64,000 nt of DNA from Clostridia bacterium. Its GTDB lineage: Bacteria; Bacillota; Clostridia; Christensenellales; UBA1242. Shown piece by piece: positions 10,707-61,812 of the stretch (positions are counted from its first letter, which is position 1; the number at the start of each line of letters is the position of its first letter). The position numbers and the translations under genes were made by a program. A model generated the notes under the pieces. It did not search any database. It saw only the letters and a program-made list of their open reading frames with translations, and was not told the origin of the DNA. Location: assembly GCA_045534265.1 (NCBI GenBank), contig JAZSJH010000005.1, forward strand, positions 22,234 to 86,233, given 5' to 3'.

Positions 10707-11444
10707 ATGAAAGTTTATCAAATTGATTGCTCAAACTGCGGAGCAAGTCTTGACATAGAAGAAGGAAAAACAAGAGGTTTTTGTCAATATTGCGGAACAC
10801 CTTTTGTTGTTAATATGGAAAATCAAAATCCACCAGCTGCAGATAATAAACCTAAAACTCCAGAAGATGAATATCAAGCACTTATCAAAGCGGAAAGGGC
10901 TAGAAATTATCCAGAAGCTATACGCATATATGACGAAATGTTGTCAACATCTCCAGACAGATTTGATTTGCTTATAGGTAGAGCTTTTGCTATGATAGCA
11001 GAGTCAAAAGAAAACCTATTTAATTTAGACAAATTCAAAAATGCATTTACATATGCTTTGACCAAGACAAAAGGTGTAGACCCTATGGTTGTTCACATTG
11101 TTGTTTTGGACAAACTATGGTCTATCAAGCACTTTTTGCTAGAAAACACTCTAAAGATTGGTAGCAATAGCCCAGATTATATTTATAATTTGGTAGCTAT
11201 TAATGATCTTCAAATGTACATTAATAGTTTTGCTGCAACAGAAACATTTGCAAGCCCACATAAAACATATGTAACAAATTATAAAAACCTAAAAGAAGAC
11301 ATTAAGTTTATATCAGAAAGAATTCTTTTGCAAGCAAAGAGATTTAAGGGGGATTTTCCTTCTAAACAATATCTAAAGTATGTAGAAAACAACTTGGCAG
11401 AAGCCGAAAAAGAGCTTTCTGTTTTGAATAGAAAATATTATTAA
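10707..11444 (+). CDS. hypothetical protein with N-terminal zinc ribbon and helical (TPR-like) body
   Basis: CSNCGASLDIEEGKTRGFCQYCG (CxxC-N14-CxxC) right after the Met. AAGGAG RBS before ATG 10707. Confidence 0.6.
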   Translation: MKVYQIDCSNCGASLDIEEGKTRGFCQYCGTPFVVNMENQNPPAADNKPKTPEDEYQALIKAERARNYPEAIRIYDEMLSTSPDRFDLLIGRAFAMIAESKENLFNLDKFKNAFTYALTKTKGVDPMVVHIVVLDKLWSIKHFLLENTLKIGSNSPDYIYNLVAINDLQMYINSFAATETFASPHKTYVTNYKNLKEDIKFISERILLQAKRFKGDFPSKQYLKYVENNLAEAEKELSVLNRKYY

Positions 11445-11458
11445 AAGAGGTAACTAAT

Positions 11459-12517
11459 ATGCCAGTAGGGCCATCTCACCGTAGGGGCGGCGGAAGTAGC
11501 CGTTCTTCATCTAGATCTTCATCATCTAGGTCTAGTTCGTCTAGAAGTTATAGTTCTAGTCGTTCTAGAAGTTATAGTTCATCACGCAGCTATTCTTCTG
11601 GTCGCAGACATTATCACTATTATGATGACGATTATTATAGTGGTGACGGAATCACAATCTCTCCAAGGGGTTGGGCAATATTTGGAATTGTAATTGGCTT
11701 TATGGTGGTGCTTGCGTGTCTTTGTGCAGGTATCGGGATATTAGCAAATAATGTTCCTTACCATATCACAATGCGAAAAGACGCTCCACAGTATCAAGAA
11801 ATAATCGAAAGAGCTCACCGCGGAGAAGAAGGGTATTATGAAAAATACATAACAGACATTAAATGGTCTGGTTCTGGTAGTTCTGGCGGAGAGCCTACTT
11901 ATTATAGATTGTCTAGTGATAATGGAACTCCATATGACCATAATGATAATACCTATATAGAGGCATATTCTGAAGTGGTAAAAGATGGTGTTAACTATTA
12001 TTGGCTTGAGATATCTTTTTGGAGCGAAGAGGTTAATGAGAGAATATCTTGTATTACATATTCGCAATACCCAGAAGCCGCCGTTGCGGGACTTTCTTCA
12101 ATTCGCCTTGCTTATACAAAAGAATATGATAATGATGGTAGCTGGGACGTAATTAATTATAGTTACAACCTATCAAACAATGCAGATTATTGGTATACTG
12201 GCAAACAAATCACAACTGGAGTTATACTACTTGTAGTAGCATTAGGAGTTGGAGCTCTTATGGTTTGGTGTTGCACACTTGTACATAAAGCCGGCAAAAA
12301 GTCTGCCGCAACTACTCAAGCAACATCAACTCAAACAACACAGGAGCCATCTCTATTAACAAAACTTTTTGGCGAACAAACACCAAGCGAACAATCATCA
12401 ATAACTCAATTTAAGGTTTGTTCATACTGCGGAGCTCACGCAAAAATGGATGACGATAGTTGTAACTCTTGCGGTTCTAAAAAGTTTAGAAAAGCAAAAG
12501 ATAGCGACTTAGCTTAA
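11459..12517 (+). CDS. membrane protein with Ser/Arg-rich N-terminus, two TM helices and C-terminal zinc ribbon
   Basis: Residues 9-50 are almost only S/R/Y (SSRSSSRSSSSRSSSSRSYSSSRSRSYSSSRSYSSGRR). Hydrophobic helices WAIFGIVIGFMVVLACLCAGIGIL and VILLVVALGVGALMVWCCTLV. C-terminal CSYCG..N9..CNSCG. Confidence 0.65.
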   Translation: MPVGPSHRRGGGSSRSSSRSSSSRSSSSRSYSSSRSRSYSSSRSYSSGRRHYHYYDDDYYSGDGITISPRGWAIFGIVIGFMVVLACLCAGIGILANNVPYHITMRKDAPQYQEIIERAHRGEEGYYEKYITDIKWSGSGSSGGEPTYYRLSSDNGTPYDHNDNTYIEAYSEVVKDGVNYYWLEISFWSEEVNERISCITYSQYPEAAVAGLSSIRLAYTKEYDNDGSWDVINYSYNLSNNADYWYTGKQITTGVILLVVALGVGALMVWCCTLVHKAGKKSAATTQATSTQTTQEPSLLTKLFGEQTPSEQSSITQFKVCSYCGAHAKMDDDSCNSCGSKKFRKAKDSDLA

Positions 12518-30607: not shown

Positions 30608-30690
30608 TGGTGCGGATGAGAGGAATCGAACCCCCACTCTCTCGAACTAGATCCTAAGTCTAGCGCGTCTGCCAGTTCCGCCACATCCGC
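30608..30690 (-). tRNA. tRNA-Leu (anticodon TAG)
   Basis: Reverse complement is GCGGATG..CTAGA-CTTAGGA-TCTAG..GGGGGTTCGATTCCTCT-CATCCGC-A-CCA. Long variable region, encoded CCA. Confidence 0.85.
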
Positions 30691-30693
30691 ATG

Positions 30694-30769
30694 TGGTGAT
30701 CCATCCGCGGTTCGAACGCGGGACCCCTTGATTAAAAGTCAAGTGCTCTACCAGCTGAGCTAATGGATC
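30694..30769 (-). tRNA. tRNA-Lys (anticodon TTT)
   Basis: Reverse complement is GATCCAT TAGCTCAGCTGGTAGAGC..CTTGA-CTTTTAA-TCAAG..GCGTTCGAACCGC-ATGGATC-A-CCA. Confidence 0.92.
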
Positions 30770-30782
30770 ATATTAAATTAAA

Positions 30783-30857
30783 TGGCTGGGGTGGCAAGAT
30801 TCGAACTTACGCGTGTCAGAGTCAAAGTCTGATGCCTTACCGCTTGGCTACACCCCA
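30783..30857 (-). tRNA. tRNA-Gln (anticodon TTG)
   Basis: Reverse complement is TGGGGTG TAGCCAAGCGGTAAGGC..TCAGA-CTTTGAC-TCTGA..TTCGAATC..CACCCCA-G-CCA. Confidence 0.9.
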
Positions 30858-30881
30858 TTATTAAATTGCGGTAATCTTTTT

Positions 30882-30956
30882 TGGCTGGGGTGGTAGGATT
30901 TGAACCCACGAATGCGGGAGTCAGAGACCCGTGCCTTACCGCTTGGCTACACCCCA
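30882..30956 (-). tRNA. tRNA-Gln (anticodon CTG)
   Basis: Same acceptor and D arm as the neighbouring Gln gene. The anticodon loop is CTCTGAC. There is a T-T opposition at 31-39. Confidence 0.85.
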
Positions 30957-30974
30957 CTAAAGTAGTGTGTTTAT

Positions 30975-31052
30975 TGGGGTGAAAGATGGGGCTCGAACCC
31001 ACGACCTCCAGAGCCACAATCTGGCGCTCTAGCCAACTGAGCTACAATCACC
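30975..31052 (-). tRNA. tRNA-His (anticodon GTG) with G-1; acceptor stem carries two U-U mismatches
   Basis: Reverse complement is G-GTGATTG TAGCTCAGTTGGCTAGAGC..CCAGA-TTGTGGC-TCTGG..GTGGGTTCGAGCCCCAT-CTTTCAC-C-CCA. Positions 5-68 and 6-67 are T opposite T. Confidence 0.8.
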
Positions 31053-31056
31053 ATAA

Positions 31057-31133
31057 TGGTGTACCAGAAGGGATTCGAACCCCTGACACCCGCCTTAGAA
31101 GGGCGGTGCTCTATCCAGCTGAGCTACTGGTAC
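31057..31133 (-). tRNA. tRNA-Arg (anticodon TCT)
   Basis: Reverse complement is GTACCAG TAGCTCAGCTGGATAGAGC..CCGCC-CTTCTAA-GGCGG..GGGGTTCGAATCCCT-CTGGTAC-A-CCA. Confidence 0.92.
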
Positions 31134-31160
31134 GTAAACACAACCTTTCTAGGTTGCCAA

Positions 31161-31234
31161 TGGAGCGGGTGATGGGAATCGGACCCACGCAGCCAGCTTG
31201 GAAGGCTGGAACTCTACCATTGAGCTACACCCGC
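31161..31234 (-). tRNA. tRNA-Gly (anticodon TCC)
   Basis: Reverse complement is GCGGGTG TAGCTCAATGGTAGAGT..CCAGC-CTTCCAA-GCTGG..TGGGTCCGATTCCCA-CACCCGC-T-CCA. Confidence 0.92.
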
Positions 31235-44124: not shown

Positions 44125-44262
44125 TAACCTATAAAGAGTGTGCGAGGGACAAGCCTTACGACCACACAGCAACCTACCTGCAAAGGCAAGGTGCTAATGC
44201 TTGTATGATGGGAAAAACAAAAGATAAAAAAGGTCCTATCATAAGATAGGGCCTTTTTATTT
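44125..44262 (+). promoter_or_regulatory. SAM-I (S-box) riboswitch with terminator, upstream of metK
   Basis: Conserved blocks AAGAG..GCGAGGGAC.AGCC...GCAACC......GGTGCTAA. Then the terminator AGGTCCTATC-ataa-GATAGGGCCT followed by a T-run. Confidence 0.8.
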
Positions 44263-44305: not shown

Positions 44306-45397
44306 ATGGAAGAAATAATAACAAGTGAAAGTGTTGGCAGGGGACACCCAGACAAAACCTGCGATATTATTGCGGATAGTTTTTTGGACGAAGCAATAAG
44401 ACAAGATAAAGACAGCCAAATGGCAGTAGAATGTGCTATAAAAGATGACCTTTTGATGATTTATGGTGAGCAAACCACAAAAGCAGTGATTGATTACGAA
44501 ACTATTGCAAGGAATATTCTCAAAGATATTGGCTACAAAAATGATTTTAGAATAATAAAGCAAATATCTATCCAATCTCCAGAAATAAACAACGCAGTAA
44601 CAAAATCTAAACTTTGCGCCAATGACCAAGGCATTGTTTTTGGGTATGCTACAAATGAAAGCAGTGATTATATGCCACTTCCTATCAGTATCGCTCATAG
44701 CCTTATGAAAGAGTACGAAAACTACCGCAAAACAAACCCACTATTTTTTGCCGATAGCAAAAGCCAAGTTTCTATAAAATATGTGGACGGAAAACCAATG
44801 TCTGTTGATACAATACTTCTTTCTGTATCACATAGCGAAGTTTTGAGTTGGGGAGAAATAAAAGCCCTTATAAAAACAAATGTTGTGGATAAAGTACTTA
44901 AAAATGTGTTTATAGACAAATCAAACTATAACCTAATAATAAATCCAAGCGGTAAGTTTACTATTTGGGGTAGTTTTGGTGATAGCGGTTGCGTGGGAAG
45001 AAAAATTGTTGTTGATACTTATGGTGGTGTTGGCAAAGTAGGTGGCGGTTGTTTTAGCTCCAAAAACGCAACCAAGGTGGATAGGTCAGGGGCATATTTT
45101 GCAAGATTTATTGCAAAAAATATAGTTGCTCACAACCTAGCTGACAAATGCGAAATCGGTCTGAGTTACGGCATTGGTCTTGAATATCCTATCAGTATAT
45201 CTGTCGAAACATTTGGTACAGAAAAGGTGGCAAAAGACAAGATTTATAAGTTCATAACAGATAACTTTGATTTGTCAGTGGATAGTATGATAAAAGAACT
45301 TGACCTTCAAAAGCCTATCTTTGCAAAAACTGCTTGTTATGGGCATTTTGGGAATCCAGACTTTAGTTGGGAAAAAATCAAGAAATGCAAAATATAA
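44306..45397 (+). CDS. metK: S-adenosylmethionine synthetase
   Basis: TSESVGRGHPDKTCD, GDQGIVFGYA-like NDQGIVFGYA, and GGGCFSSKNATKVDRSGAY. Confidence 0.93.
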   Translation: MEEIITSESVGRGHPDKTCDIIADSFLDEAIRQDKDSQMAVECAIKDDLLMIYGEQTTKAVIDYETIARNILKDIGYKNDFRIIKQISIQSPEINNAVTKSKLCANDQGIVFGYATNESSDYMPLPISIAHSLMKEYENYRKTNPLFFADSKSQVSIKYVDGKPMSVDTILLSVSHSEVLSWGEIKALIKTNVVDKVLKNVFIDKSNYNLIINPSGKFTIWGSFGDSGCVGRKIVVDTYGGVGKVGGGCFSSKNATKVDRSGAYFARFIAKNIVAHNLADKCEIGLSYGIGLEYPISISVETFGTEKVAKDKIYKFITDNFDLSVDSMIKELDLQKPIFAKTACYGHFGNPDFSWEKIKKCKI

Positions 45398-45515
45398 CAA
45401 AAAATAAATGCTAATAAAAAAAGTTGTTTTACTGTATAAAGAACAAACCATATAAAAAGTAACATTGGCACTTTCAAAAAATGTTAGAAAATCACACAAA
45501 AAATAACAAAAAACA

Positions 45516-45544
45516 TTGACTTTTGTTTTTATAAGTTATATAAT
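45516..45544 (+). promoter_or_regulatory. promoter of tRNA-Lys(CTT) (TTGACT-17-TATAAT)
   Basis: TTGACT at 45516-45521 and TATAAT at 45539-45544. It is embedded in an 11-bp perfect inverted repeat (45516-45526 / 45545-45555). Confidence 0.55.
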
Positions 45545-45562
45545 ACAAAAGTCAATCGATAT

Positions 45563-45638
45563 GGACGACTAGCTCAGTTGGTAGAGCAACTGACTCTTAA
45601 TCAGTGGGTCCAGGGTTCGAGTCCCTGGTCGTCCACCA
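45563..45638 (+). tRNA. tRNA-Lys (anticodon CTT)
   Basis: GGACGAC TAGCTCAGTTGGTAGAGC..ACTGA-CTCTTAA-TCAGT..CAGGGTTCGAGTCCCTG-GTCGTCC-A-CCA. Confidence 0.93.
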
Positions 45639-45672
45639 ACTAAATGCCGAGTTTATCGGCATTTTTTTATTA
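45632..45672 (+). repeat. 41-bp direct repeat, left copy (tRNA-Lys 3' end + terminator hairpin)
   Basis: TCCACCAACTAAATGCCGAGTTTATCGGCATTTTTTTATTA, identical to 47525-47565. It contains the terminator ATGCCGA-gttta-TCGGCAT-T7. Confidence 0.95.
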
Positions 45673-45729
45673 AATGATTTTTTATATTTAAAGGTTATAT
45701 GAAAAAATACGCGATATAATTTTGTAATC

Positions 45730-45758
45730 TTTACAATTTATTGCGAAGGTGGTACAAT
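45730..45758 (+). promoter_or_regulatory. islet-internal promoter (TTTACA-17-TACAAT, TG-extended)
   Basis: TTTACA at 45730-45735, spacer ending ..GGTGG, TACAAT at 45753-45758. It lies 24 nt upstream of ATG 45782. Confidence 0.5.
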
Positions 45759-45781
45759 GTATTTGTTATATAGGAGAGAAA

Positions 45782-46879
45782 ATGAACGTTTTATATTTAA
45801 TTGGTAATGGGTTTGATGTTAATGCAGGGATGAAAACTAGATATTCAGATTTTTATGATTATTACCTGAATTCTAACAATGATGAAAATCCACTGATTTC
45901 TGAAGTCAAAAAATCAATTAACCAATATTTGAATAATAAAGAATTTTCAAAAATCAATTGGTCAGATTTAGAAATTGCTTTTGGAAAATATTGTGAAAAT
46001 TTTAACTCAAAAGAGGATTTTGACACAGTCTATAAAGATTTAGTTTTAAGTTTATCGAAATATTTGCAAACTCAAGAAAAAGCATATTTAATTCCTGAAA
46101 AATGTAAAACAATATTTATAAATGATTTGTGTTCTCCTTTTAAATATATTTCTGAAGTTGATAGGGAATATTTTAATACATATCTTAATTCTTTTACCTC
46201 ATTTTTAAAGGTAAACATTATTACATATAATTATACGAATTCGATAGAGAATATTTTGCAATGGAAAGGTTCTTCTTTATATGTTGGAACTAAGCTAAAT
46301 CATGGACAAGTACAGATTGATAATATACAACACATTCATGGGTATACTAATAAAAGAATGGTCTTAGGCGTAAATGATGAAAGTCAGGTAAACAATTCAG
46401 AATTGTTGAAAAATCAATACTTCAAGAATGCAATCATTAAAAAGGATTGTAATAATGCACAAAAAACACTTCATGTTAAAATATGTAAAAATCTGATTTT
46501 GGAAGCAAATATTATTTGTATGTTTGGTTTATCTTTAGGAGAAACAGATAAAGATTGGTGGAGTTTTATTATAGAAAATATAGAAAAAAAGAATATTAAA
46601 TTGATTATTTTTGCACATTCTGAGCAAGAAGTTAATGGAATATTTAGTTATGAACAAGCAGAAATTTCAGACAAGATTATATATAGATTTTTATCAATGT
46701 CAAATTTGAATAATGATGCTAAAGAAAGGGTTAGAAAAAACATATATGTAGCTATAAATGCAAATATATTTAATTTTAAATTTGATAAAATTAGAAAACT
46801 TGATAATTTAAAAAATGAATTTCGCAAATTAGCAAAAGATCAAACAATAACAAAAAATGAAGTTAAGTTTGCTAGATAG
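45782..46879 (+). CDS. AbiH-like abortive-infection family protein (365 aa)
   Basis: The N-terminus MNVLYLIGNGFDVNAGMKTRYSDFYDYY matches the IGNGFD..G..T.Y.DF hallmark I associate with Pfam AbiH. Later blocks are HIHGYTNKRMVLGVND and ICMFGLSLGETDKDWW. AGGAG RBS. Confidence 0.6.
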   Translation: MNVLYLIGNGFDVNAGMKTRYSDFYDYYLNSNNDENPLISEVKKSINQYLNNKEFSKINWSDLEIAFGKYCENFNSKEDFDTVYKDLVLSLSKYLQTQEKAYLIPEKCKTIFINDLCSPFKYISEVDREYFNTYLNSFTSFLKVNIITYNYTNSIENILQWKGSSLYVGTKLNHGQVQIDNIQHIHGYTNKRMVLGVNDESQVNNSELLKNQYFKNAIIKKDCNNAQKTLHVKICKNLILEANIICMFGLSLGETDKDWWSFIIENIEKKNIKLIIFAHSEQEVNGIFSYEQAEISDKIIYRFLSMSNLNNDAKERVRKNIYVAINANIFNFKFDKIRKLDNLKNEFRKLAKDQTITKNEVKFAR

Positions 46880-46897
46880 TGAAATATTAGAGGTTTT

Positions 46898-47500
46898 ATG
46901 AATTTAGAAGAATATAATAAAGTTAAAAATTTTACATACCTTGAATATTGTGATTATTTGCAACAAAAATATGGTATAGGCGTTTGTGATTATATGACAA
47001 AAGCATATAATAAAAGGCCAAAGATTTCTAGAAGTAAAGAAGGTTTATTTGTTCACCACAAATTTGAAGACCATGCAATATTACTTTCAAATAAAAAATT
47101 TGCAATGGTAAACCCTTTTGAATGGCAATTTGCTGAAAATATGGTTTATTGTGATTATTTAGAACATTTATTATTACATGTTTTAATTTGTGAAAAACCA
47201 GCAAAAGATAAAAATAAATTTGAAGCTGTTGGAATAGGTGGCTTTTTTATAATTATTTCAACTCTAAATGATTTTTATAGTGGTTGGAATACGGAAAAAT
47301 TAACTTGGCTACAAACTTGTTTAGAAAAAGTATCAAAAGATAAAAATGTTTACCTTGAAATTATTAAACGATTTAAACATAATTGCAACAAACATCCTCA
47401 TTACACAGAAGACTGTCTTTATAGGAGTTATAATTCTCAATTAGGAAATTGGTCTATTGAAAATAATAAACAACTTTTTAAGGAAATAAAACAGCTTTAA
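46898..47500 (+). CDS. uncharacterised 200-aa protein with HNH/His-Me-finger-like motif, co-operonic with the AbiH-like gene
   Basis: AGAGG RBS, 18 nt after the upstream stop. EGLFVHHKFEDH...ENMVYCDYLEHLLLH resembles the HH..N..H...H spacing of HNH nucleases, but lacks the zinc Cys pairs. Otherwise unrecognised. Confidence 0.55.
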   Translation: MNLEEYNKVKNFTYLEYCDYLQQKYGIGVCDYMTKAYNKRPKISRSKEGLFVHHKFEDHAILLSNKKFAMVNPFEWQFAENMVYCDYLEHLLLHVLICEKPAKDKNKFEAVGIGGFFIIISTLNDFYSGWNTEKLTWLQTCLEKVSKDKNVYLEIIKRFKHNCNKHPHYTEDCLYRSYNSQLGNWSIENNKQLFKEIKQL

Positions 47501-47524
47501 AAATTAGAGTTAAGTTTCTTATGC

Positions 47525-47565
47525 TCCACCAACTAAATGCCGAGTTTATCGGCATTTTTTTATTA
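47525..47565 (+). repeat. 41-bp direct repeat, right copy
   Basis: Identical to 45632-45672. It provides the terminator for the islet operon. Confidence 0.95.
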
Positions 47566-47884
47566 TAAAAAATAAAAATGGAGTTTCGAAATTAAGTTTT
47601 ACCCTTAATTTTACCCTTAAAATATATAACGAAAAATACAAGTGTTCGCTTGTATTTTTTTGCATATCCTATTTGAATAATTAGCAAACGTGCTGATACT
47701 GGTCTTGTGCAACCTGTAAGTGGTGTTATAGTAAGGGCAGTGGCATTGCCTGCTGTAAAAAAATGTCAATTGTTGGGCAAGTTGAATTTATACAAAAAAT
47801 ATTTTGATATATAAGGTACTTTTTCAAAATATTAGTTGTAAAAAGTGGGTTTTAATTGTACAATATTTTTGGAGGGCGAAAGTT

Positions 47885-49252
47885 ATGAATTATGATGTAA
47901 TTATAATCGGGGCAGGTCCGGGGGGCATTTTTTCAGCCTACGAACTTGCAAAAAATAACAAAGACATAAAAATTGCTGTTTTTGAGGCAGGTAGCGCCCT
48001 AAAAGATAGAAAATGTCCTATAGATGGCAAAAAAATTACTTCTTGTATTGGCTGTAAAAGTTGCAGTATTATGAGTGGTTTTGGCGGAGCGGGAGCCTTT
48101 TCGGATGGAAAGTATAATATAACTAATGACTTTGGTGGTACGCTTTACGAATATGTTGGCAAAGAAAATGCCATAAGCCTTATGGAATATGTTGACAAAA
48201 TCAATGTAGAAAATGGTGGAGAGTGTACAAAACTATACTCAACAGGTGGTAGCGGGCTAAAAAGAGAATGTATCAAACACGACTTGCATTTGTTAGATGC
48301 AAAAGTTAGACATTTGGGTACAGATATTAACTATGTTGTATTAGAAAATATTTATAATAAATTAAAAGACGTTGTTGATTTTTATTTCAACACAACAGTA
48401 GATAGTGTAAGCAAAATACAAGACGGCTACGAAGTAAAATGCAAAGACAAGACATATTCTTGTTCAAATTGTATTGTGTCAGTTGGTCGCAGCGGTAGCA
48501 AATGGATGGAAAAAGTTTGCAGCGACCTAAACATTAAGACTAAGTCAAATAGAGTAGATATTGGCGTTAGAGTTGAACTTCCGGCTAATGTTTTTGCTCA
48601 TATAACAGATGAACTATATGAAAGCAAGATTGTTTATTGTACCGAAAAGTATGGTGATAAGGTAAGAACTTTTTGTATGAACCCAAGAGGCGTGGTTGTT
48701 AACGAAAACACAAATGGCATAATTACTGTTAATGGTCATAGCTATCACGGAGAAGAGTCAAAAACAGATAATACTAACTTTGCACTACTTGTATCAAAAC
48801 AATTTTCAGAGCCTTTCAAAGACTCTAATGGTTATGGTGAGTCAATAGCAAGACTTAGCAATATGTTAGGTGGCGGGGTTTTGGTTCAAAGATTTGGCGA
48901 CCTTATTCGTGGCAGAAGATCTACTGTTTCGCGTATGAGAGATGCGTTTATCACACCAACTCTAAAGGCAACTCCGGGTGACCTTAGTTTGGTTCTTCCA
49001 AAAAGAATACTAGACGGTATTATTGAGATGATATATGCTTTGGACAAAATAGCTCCGGGAACTGCAAATGATGATACATTGCTATATGGGGTAGAAGTTA
49101 AGTTTTATAATATGGAAGTTGAGGTAAACGAAAGCTTAGAAACTTGCCACAAAGGTTTGTATATCATAGGTGATGGTAGCGGTATAACTCACTCACTATC
49201 TCATGCATCAGCTAGCGGCGTACATGTTGCAAGAGCAATTCTTAATAAATAA
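47885..49252 (+). CDS. FAD-dependent oxidoreductase (COG2509-like uncharacterised dehydrogenase)
   Basis: YDVIIIGAGPGGIFSAYELA dinucleotide-binding motif, C-terminal GLYIIGDGSG, and a central Cys cluster CPIDGKKITSCIGCKSC. GGAGGG RBS before ATG 47885. Confidence 0.72.
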   Translation: MNYDVIIIGAGPGGIFSAYELAKNNKDIKIAVFEAGSALKDRKCPIDGKKITSCIGCKSCSIMSGFGGAGAFSDGKYNITNDFGGTLYEYVGKENAISLMEYVDKINVENGGECTKLYSTGGSGLKRECIKHDLHLLDAKVRHLGTDINYVVLENIYNKLKDVVDFYFNTTVDSVSKIQDGYEVKCKDKTYSCSNCIVSVGRSGSKWMEKVCSDLNIKTKSNRVDIGVRVELPANVFAHITDELYESKIVYCTEKYGDKVRTFCMNPRGVVVNENTNGIITVNGHSYHGEESKTDNTNFALLVSKQFSEPFKDSNGYGESIARLSNMLGGGVLVQRFGDLIRGRRSTVSRMRDAFITPTLKATPGDLSLVLPKRILDGIIEMIYALDKIAPGTANDDTLLYGVEVKFYNMEVEVNESLETCHKGLYIIGDGSGITHSLSHASASGVHVARAILNK

Positions 49253-61736: not shown

Positions 61737-61812
61737 TGGTGACACATATGGGACTCGAACCCATGTTACCGGCGTGAGAGGCCAGCGTACTAGACCGCTA
61801 TACGAATGTGCC
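61737..61812 (-). tRNA. tRNA-Glu (anticodon CTC)
   Basis: Reverse complement is GGCACAT TCGTATAGCGGTCTAGTAC..CTGGC-CTCTCAC-GCCGG..ATGGGTTCGAGTCCCAT-ATGTGTC-A-CCA. Confidence 0.88.

Follow-up and report, generated by a model that had tools for sequence, protein, structure and literature searches.

The window analysed here (a stretch of 64,000 nucleotides from a Clostridia bacterium, assembly GCA_045534265.1, contig JAZSJH010000005.1, positions 22,234–86,233 of the forward strand) contains, directly behind a tRNA-Lys(CTT) gene, an islet of foreign DNA bounded by two copies of a 41-bp direct repeat. The tRNA gene is intact (45563–45638, + strand), as identified by ARAGORN and by an Rfam tRNA match of 72.3 bits, and is preceded by a promoter-like site TTGACT-17-TATAAT (45516–45544, +; 11 of 12 matches in a consensus scan). 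The region 45498–45639 is ∼98% identical in the relatives L098 and L099 (L numbers denote loci fetched for comparison), and the sequence of the tRNA itself is identical in L099, L100 and L182. The first repeat copy, on the attL side (45632–45672, +), consists of the last 7 nt of the tRNA, a hairpin (45642–45664), a T-run and the bases ATTA; the second, on the attR side (47525–47565, +), contains the corresponding hairpin at 47535–47557. The 1852 bp between the copies are made up of 109 nt containing one promoter-like site (TTTACA-17-TACAAT with an extended −10 TG, 45730–45758, +; a pattern match only), two intact co-oriented open reading frames (ORFs) separated by an 18-nt spacer, and a 24-nt trailer (47501–47524, +), with no pseudogene fragments. 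The first ORF, abiH (45782–46879, +), encodes 365 residues and matches Pfam PF14253 and the AbiH model of PADLOC; the second, referred to below as gene 2 (46898–47500, +), encodes 200 residues and belongs to the SAV1803 family (NCBIfam NF053682). The original prediction, which was made from the letters of the DNA, had listed a promoter and two genes as the sole contents of the islet, and this is the content that we find.

The repeat unit, TCCACCAACTAAATGCCGAGTTTATCGGCATTTTTTTATTA, occurs exactly twice in the window with zero mismatches at the predicted positions, and no third copy is present in the window at up to three mismatches (chance expectation 0). The bases outside the two copies differ: the attL side reads GGTCG, then the 41-mer, then AATGATT, and the attR side reads TTATGC, then the 41-mer, then TAAAAAAT. 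The repeat is therefore exactly 41 bp long, with identity that does not extend on either side. It starts 7 nt inside the 3′ end of the tRNA gene, and 34 of the 41 repeated bases are a lineage-specific terminator, as the earlier description of the repeat as mostly terminator implied. In each copy a T-run follows a hairpin with a 9-bp stem, and no other terminator-like site is present across 45350–47950. The 3′ end and terminator of the tRNA gene are preserved and a second terminator closes the cassette, which insulates the insertion and probably spares the host any harm. A dispersed terminator or repetitive extragenic palindromic (REP)-like repeat was considered and rejected on the basis of its distribution: besides the two copies in the window, a 35-mer of the repeat has no exact match in the genome and metagenome collections, and in 186 fetched loci (1.9 Mb) a near copy of the 41-mer turned up solely at the orthologous site, in L100.

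The islet has a G+C content of 24.3%, compared with 33.6% for the window (z = −3.85), and lies below every non-overlapping window of 1852 nt. The G+C content at third codon positions is 17% in abiH and 13% in gene 2 versus 27 ± 3% in 18 other genes of the window, and the codon-usage distance of the two islet genes slightly exceeds the background maximum. The poverty in G+C that had been judged by eye is thus borne out by calculation, codon usage deviates as well, and the islet is compositionally foreign.

Syntenic relatives were found by a search with MetK. In L100, the MetK of which is 87% identical to that of the window, the order is metK, the identical tRNA-Lys(CTT), a single 41-mer (40 of 41 bases, with the mismatch in the loop) and, directly joined to it, the homologue of 47566–47636 (+). 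The alignment runs from window 47525–47636 to L100 11269–11379 with 90% identity (blastn), and synteny resumes at the promoter of the oxidoreductase gene. L100 therefore provides an empty site, the uninterrupted counterpart of the islet locus, with the tRNA, one repeat copy and the downstream chromosome joined as the original prediction had anticipated for related genomes. A search of genome contigs with the oxidoreductase as query returned 80 loci, none of which is syntenic with metK, because this protein is ∼80% conserved across Clostridia. In L099 (4482–5168; MetK 91% identical), the CCACCA of the same tRNA-Lys leads directly into a different terminator and then a Cys-rich gene without a family match, a third occupant of the site, which marks this tRNA end as a recombination hot spot. 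A second variable segment of the same hot spot adjoins the flank of the islet and lies outside it: the window has 189 bp with a terminator-like hairpin (47637–47825) where L100 has 889 bp (11380–12268) with an ORF for a 129-residue membrane protein. Conspecific contigs from sequencing runs X4 and X12 lose their match to the window to the left of ∼47792–47795.

Variation among strains was assessed with Logan contigs from nine runs placed on the locus, where the tRNA draws contigs of many species. Sequence words of the islet are confined to runs X1, X2 and X9, the contigs of which reproduce the islet largely, with 0–2 differences; the right flank is present in X3, X4, X6, X8, X12 and X5. Contigs of X2 cross both edges of the second repeat, running from gene 2 into repeat 2 and from repeat 2 into 47566 onward, and no independent contig covers the left junction (45673–45751). 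These contigs bear on the possibility that the islet is an artefact or a coincidence, that is, that strain variants were mis-joined in a metagenome assembly or that a common terminator repeat happens to occur twice. The source is apparently an uncultured gut bacterium, and mixtures of strains are present in the samples. Against this, contigs from independent samples span most of the islet and both joints of the second repeat almost without differences, the distribution of the repeat described above is not that of a common terminator, and L182 independently places gene 2 behind the same tRNA, which leaves an artefact as a most improbable explanation. The islet is a real insertion of foreign DNA at the 3′ flank of tRNA-Lys: the empty site in L100, the foreign composition and the absence of islet words from strains that hold the flank all support the reading of the repeats as an integration scar.

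Canonical recombinases are absent in and beside the islet. Neither islet gene contains an integrase, transposase or excisionase domain, none was found in the syntenic genes over ∼10 kb on either side (Pfam labels of L100; housekeeping genes or genes of no known function), and no integrase is among the 25 families listed of the 75 found in a window-wide Pfam scan, which are cell-division, sporulation and housekeeping families. The statement that the element has no recombinase thus holds for the canonical enzymes, but gene 2 may be more than the plain cargo that both genes had been taken for, as it is a candidate for targeting (see below). A transposon or insertion sequence was rejected on the grounds that there is no transposase domain, that the ends of the islet are not inverted and that the repeats of related cassettes vary between 8 and 131 bp, which excludes a fixed target duplication. 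An integron gene cassette was likewise rejected, as the repeat is a host tRNA end plus terminator and not attC, and no integrase is nearby. With respect to an origin from an integrative and conjugative element (ICE) or an integrative and mobilizable element (IME), the islet contains no remnants and no spare sequence, and the closest relatives of both genes lie outside ICE/IME contexts.

Gene 1 is an AbiH-family abortive-infection gene with a predicted anti-phage function. The protein matches Pfam AbiH over profile positions 1–259 of 260 (E = 6 × 10−43, 148.2 bits against a cut-off of 30.9) and the PADLOC AbiH model weakly (E = 3.5 × 10−5). The nearest relatives among 5.8 billion proteins are merely 56–57% identical, and two of them, P0392 and P0394, the contigs of which were read, are encoded by solitary abiH genes in unrelated contexts from which gene 2 is absent. 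In an exact look-up, neither the MetK nor the AbiH sequence of the window has a record. A conserved two-gene system of AbiH and gene 2 was considered and rejected: AbiH stands beside gene 2 in none of ∼100 loci, including none of 80 further family loci from metagenomes, and P0392 and P0394 lack gene 2. Because abiH has its own promoter, differs in phylogenetic neighbourhood and is missing from L182, we infer that it is a later addition, a passenger cargo.

Gene 2 matches the NCBIfam family of SAV1803-related proteins (NF053682) over residues 5–128 with an E value of 1.1 × 10−37 (128.7 bits, cut-off 40); no match was obtained in Pfam, PHROG or PADLOC, and profile searches of PDB sequences returned nothing. 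The family comprises 797 clusters at 50% identity and is highly uniform in length at 200 residues. His53, Glu57 and His94 are invariant, His54, Glu89 and His90 are near-invariant, and a conserved Asn is also present. In the AlphaFold model (predicted local distance difference test score of 87.5), strands 51–54 and 82–85 are followed by a helix (87–99) that bears the second His pair, forming a ββα element; the conserved His pair corresponds to 'AHH' in the family consensus. Longer relatives of 630–1560 residues (P0148, P0209, P0212, P0233, P0246, P0232 and P0262) carry the gene-2 domain at the N- or C-terminus, together with ResIII/Helicase_C, SNF2, NUMOD, Myb or Eco57I-methylase domains in restriction-like architectures; the position of the fusion is the usual place of the nuclease domain in restriction-type proteins, which hints at a nuclease function. 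Based on the conserved His, Glu and Asn residues, the ββα element, these domain fusions and a weak AHH match, gene 2 probably encodes an HNH/AHH-type nuclease. More distant relatives (∼32% identity), each annotated as hypothetical, occur on 33 plasmids of Firmicutes and in two phages of Staphylococcus.

Two subfamilies of gene 2 have conserved partners downstream. In L160, L168, L170, L175 and L180 a small Cys-rich (zinc-ribbon-like) ORF follows just downstream, and in L122–L125 and L154 a protein of ∼530 residues with no Pfam or PADLOC match is encoded 16–24 nt downstream; these could possibly be multi-gene systems. More generally, the neighbours of the family are heterogeneous and are often defence genes (HsdR, GmrSD, toxin–antitoxin) or integrases.

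The closest relatives of gene 2 are found behind tRNA genes. In L182, the gene-2 product of which is 92% identical, the gene lies 57 nt behind the same tRNA-Lys(CTT), with a different terminator and without abiH. The 24-nt trailer of L182 is homologous to window 47501–47524, and the contig stops exactly at the position where repeat 2 starts in the window. The gene of a 79% identical relative comes at the end of a tRNA array, with tRNA-Tyr 46 nt ahead of it. Across the family, a co-oriented tRNA gene is present within 700 nt upstream in 10 of 60 deduplicated loci, compared with six of 328 other ORFs at these loci (odds ratio 10.7, p = 1.5 × 10−5). Cassettes that are 93–96% identical occur at three separate loci (L133, L134 and L139), and the homology between L134 and L139 breaks exactly after …ATTCGATTTACGTTACTAACG|CTCCGCCA, the latter being the terminal 8 nt of tRNA-Ser. 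In both L134 and L139 the right arm abuts the 3′ end of tRNA-Ser, and it shares the motif ATTNGANTTANGTTNCTNANG with the trailer of the window, 15 of 21 bases being identical; an inverted copy of this motif (∼17 of 21) is found immediately after the tRNA in L182.

Several other arrangements were seen at loci of this family. L118 (5540–5570) and L119 (2110–2135) have a gene-2 region in common. In L119 this region is preceded by an intact tRNA-Ala(GGC), and in L118 by just the final 8 nt of tRNA-Ala(GGC) (CTCCACCA), which are joined to unrelated DNA downstream of tRNA-Ala(TGC)/tRNA-Ile, so that here too a junction falls 8 nt short of the end of a tRNA. A structured, GC-rich element of ∼130 nt without an Rfam match lies between tRNA-Gly(GCC) and gene 2 in L111 (5700–5842), L103 (1–67 and 1076–1142, on both sides of gene 2) and L127 (5790–5925), and ends with a 20-nt copy of the T-arm/acceptor of tRNA-Gly from which the last 8 nt of the tRNA are missing. 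Small ORFs upstream of gene 2, which were considered as antitoxin partners, proved to be spurious frames across this element. An identical gene-2 protein, P0046, occurs in L090–L097 in at least two downstream contexts, namely an 80-residue ORF with an IS200/IS605 TnpA or tRNA-Ser with a pyrophosphatase gene. It is always located ∼100–420 nt from the start of the contig, which suggests a repeat upstream that breaks assembly.

At least four other cassettes lie between direct repeats that derive from the 3′ terminus of the preceding gene and in some cases take in its terminator; in each of these cassettes gene 2 is the last gene before repeat 2. The repeat of L152 measures 131 bp and comes from the 3′ end of dnaJ. 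That of L178 measures 123 bp, with 88% identity and a perfect 32-bp block at its right end, that of L143 41 bp with one mismatch and that of L103 67 bp, with copy 1 at the start of the contig. The cargo between repeat 1 and gene 2 is a toxin–antitoxin-like pair in L152 and consists of unknown proteins in L178 and L143. In a control of 225 random segments, none has a second repeat copy whose start lies 110 nt or less from the end of the segment. In L152 (115–1611), the cassette with its toxin–antitoxin-like pair sits in the 3′ end of dnaJ; the stop codon of gene 2 has been lost, and its frame continues into 37 duplicated dnaJ codons.

These repeats bear on the possibility that the islet entered by homology alone: a circular or looped DNA with one copy of the tRNA end and terminator would integrate by a Campbell-type crossover within the 41 bp, with host functions only. 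All 41 bp are perfectly identical, the repeats of the other cassettes are host-specific sequences of variable length, and the second copy in L178 (88% over 123 bp with its perfect 32-bp block) is what a crossover inside a diverged homologous block would produce. The locus is also hypervariable among relatives, and a ComEC-type competence protein is encoded in the window. On the other hand, 41 bp is near the lower limit for RecA-dependent exchange, which counts against such an entry, and a pre-existing circle with a host segment would be required, so that spread is explained and origin is not. The enrichment of gene 2 behind tRNA genes and its constant orientation would also be left unexplained, and we regard entry by homology alone as quite unlikely.

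The repeated occurrence of the gene-2 family behind tRNA genes and at the right edges of cassettes makes gene 2 a candidate for a targeting function. Our preferred reading, to which we give an even chance, is that the islet is a horizontally acquired, miniature two-module integrative cassette at the 3′ flank of tRNA-Lys(CTT), with the SAV1803-family module providing the targeting. Incoming DNA with one copy of the last 7 nt of the tRNA plus terminator would recombine with the chromosomal copy and duplicate the 41-bp segment, so that the resulting repeats would be junctions of the attL/attR type. The first module would be the AbiH cargo with its own promoter, which may give the host an anti-phage function, and the second would be the SAV1803-family gene with the 24-nt trailer that abuts the right repeat. 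The SAV1803-family module would guide cassettes to the 3′ termini of tRNA genes, and of other genes, and AbiH would have joined it afterwards as a passenger. The product of gene 2 could work as a free-standing nuclease of the homing type or be a recombination protein that has gone unrecognised; candidates for the strand exchange itself are this protein, a tyrosine integrase acting in trans (as for the elements discussed next) and host homologous recombination across the 41 bp.

Cis-mobilizable elements (CIMEs) are elements without integration and transfer genes in which attL and attR are kept, and the 3′ end of tRNA-Lys(CTT) hosts ICEs, IMEs, CIMEs and decayed elements in streptococci (PMC5704250). 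The islet could be an element of this type, decayed or non-autonomous, in which a larger element specific for tRNA-Lys (an ICE, IME, prophage or satellite), integrated by its own tyrosine integrase, was reduced to two selected genes and its att sites, or a mini-element that is served by an integrase in trans, with gene 2 as cargo. Integrase action is classically recognised by a direct repeat containing the 3′ end of a tRNA and by the existence of an empty site, and in Firmicutes this tRNA end is documented as a hot spot where ICEs, IMEs and decayed elements are found (PMC5704250). The junctions in the window, L134, L118 and L111 all lie 7–8 nt from the 3′ end of a tRNA, the inverted arms beside the core in L182 look like core-type binding sites of a recombinase, and integrases adjoin some homologues of gene 2 and of AbiH. 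The islet, however, has no room for remnants and no pseudogene fragments, 34 of its 41 repeated bases are terminator of this lineage and not tRNA, and the nearest integrase would have to lie beyond the ∼10 kb and the listed window families covered above; one elsewhere in the genome is conceivable. Derivation from a larger element would also leave unexplained why the closest relatives of gene 2 are single genes directly behind tRNA genes. We consider it possible, if rather doubtful.

The comparison with CIMEs and decayed ICEs or IMEs can be made feature by feature. The islet shares with them attL/attR-type repeats that include a tRNA 3′ end, an adaptive cargo and the same tRNA target in Firmicutes, and, like a CIME, it has no integration and transfer genes, with just AbiH and the SAV1803-family gene between the repeats. 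Unlike CIMEs, it is far smaller (1.85 kb, two genes), has no recognisable ICE or IME remnant and has no known partner ICE; unlike the streptococcal examples, its repeat is mostly terminator and its host is an uncultured gut Clostridia bacterium. It thus resembles a CIME or decayed tRNA-Lys island, yet it does not show derivation from an ICE or IME and has no integrase. The likeness to tyrosine-integrase islands, prophages and satellites at tRNA genes extends to the position at the tRNA 3′ end, the intact tRNA, the direct repeat, the empty site and the deviant composition, whereas the islet has no integrase or excisionase and is one to two orders of magnitude smaller.

A number of observations weigh against our preferred reading. 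The loci were gathered by a gene-2 search, so that gene 2 as the common factor is partly built in by ascertainment bias, and at the majority of gene-2 loci there is no tRNA close by and no repeat on the flanks. Among the repeat-bounded cases, the repeat length ranges from 8 to 131 bp, and the distance from the gene-2 stop to repeat 2 varies from an overlap in L152 to ∼250 nt in L103, with the others at 105 nt or less. The junction in L152 has a 5-nt microhomology (AGCTG) and therefore resembles illegitimate recombination more than the product of a dedicated site-specific enzyme. General terminal inverted repeats are not above control at the gene-2 loci (seven of 71 versus four of 59) and were seen only in L182, the left inverted arm of which is missing from the window. 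With regard to the nuclease assignment, fold searches of the PDB and BFVD with the model gave no significant match, the hits named HNH or homing endonuclease in BFVD, a library of viral structures, being below threshold (E = 0.1–1.3), and the AHH match in Pfam is also below threshold (E = 0.0035, in one of 46 family members). Finally, the empty site comes from a related species with ∼78–82% nucleotide identity in the flanking genes and not from the same strain, and the metagenomic contigs are of low depth and too short for an excision product, a circular form or an empty-site joint.

Free-standing homing endonuclease genes occur in phage tRNA gene clusters, for example T4 SegB and the HNH enzymes F-Tfl of T5. 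Gene 2 is comparable to these in being small, of predicted nuclease type, located beside tRNA genes and variably present among relatives, and some of its relatives bear the NUMOD DNA-binding modules of homing endonucleases. It differs from them in lying in a bacterial chromosome between direct repeats, which homing normally does not leave. A second comparison is provided by AbiH of Lactococcus lactis, a single-gene system: gene 1 is a full-length match to the family and its nearest relatives are solitary, but its similarity to the PADLOC AbiH model is low, as noted above.

SAV1803, after which the gene-2 family is named, is a conserved hypothetical gene that marks one end of the vSa-beta island of Staphylococcus aureus, the other end of which is a tRNA cluster (PMC6805111). 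Gene 2 shares the NF053682 domain with SAV1803 and likewise lies at the edge of a variable island with a tRNA on the other side, and both islands contain defence genes (hsdS/hsdM in vSa-beta, AbiH in the islet). The vSa-beta island is ∼30 kb in size with virulence genes, and no flanking repeat is reported for it in PMC6805111, whereas the islet has repeats and is 1.85 kb. In S. aureus, SAV1803 is treated as a fixed flank, whereas gene 2 is enclosed by the repeats and missing from the empty site. It is conceivable, although in our estimation unlikely, that SAV1803-family genes in general represent an unrecognised mobility or homing function directed at tRNA 3′ ends, from which islands of defence and virulence genes without an integrase would start, vSa-beta perhaps among them; the place of SAV1803 at the edge of vSa-beta hints at this. 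If so, an HNH/AHH-like protein of 200 residues would take small cassettes to the ends of tRNA genes and of other well-expressed genes, and cargo such as AbiH would accumulate between the tRNA terminator and the SAV1803-family gene.

Many defence and virulence islands beside tRNA genes have no integrase, and how they arrived is often unexplained. The islet is an unusually clean case, with two genes, exact junctions and a matching empty site, and the gene-2 family is widespread and unstudied in Firmicutes and includes the end-marker gene of vSa-beta. Should this family supply the targeting or cutting, it would represent a new route of island formation with a simple test system; should it not, the islet would still be a well documented minimal att-flanked AbiH defence cassette.

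The remainder of the window is core chromosome that encodes, among others, Mur ligases, FtsW, FtsZ, sporulation sigma factors, SpoIVA, Der, PlsY, GpsA and the ComEC-type competence protein. A cluster of seven tRNA genes is located at 30608–31234 (− strand) and a tRNA-Glu gene at 61737–61812 (−). Upstream of metK, a SAM (S-adenosylmethionine) riboswitch of the S-box type (44126–44214, +) scores 51.6 bits against a gathering score of 44.4, which is an ordinary regulatory arrangement.

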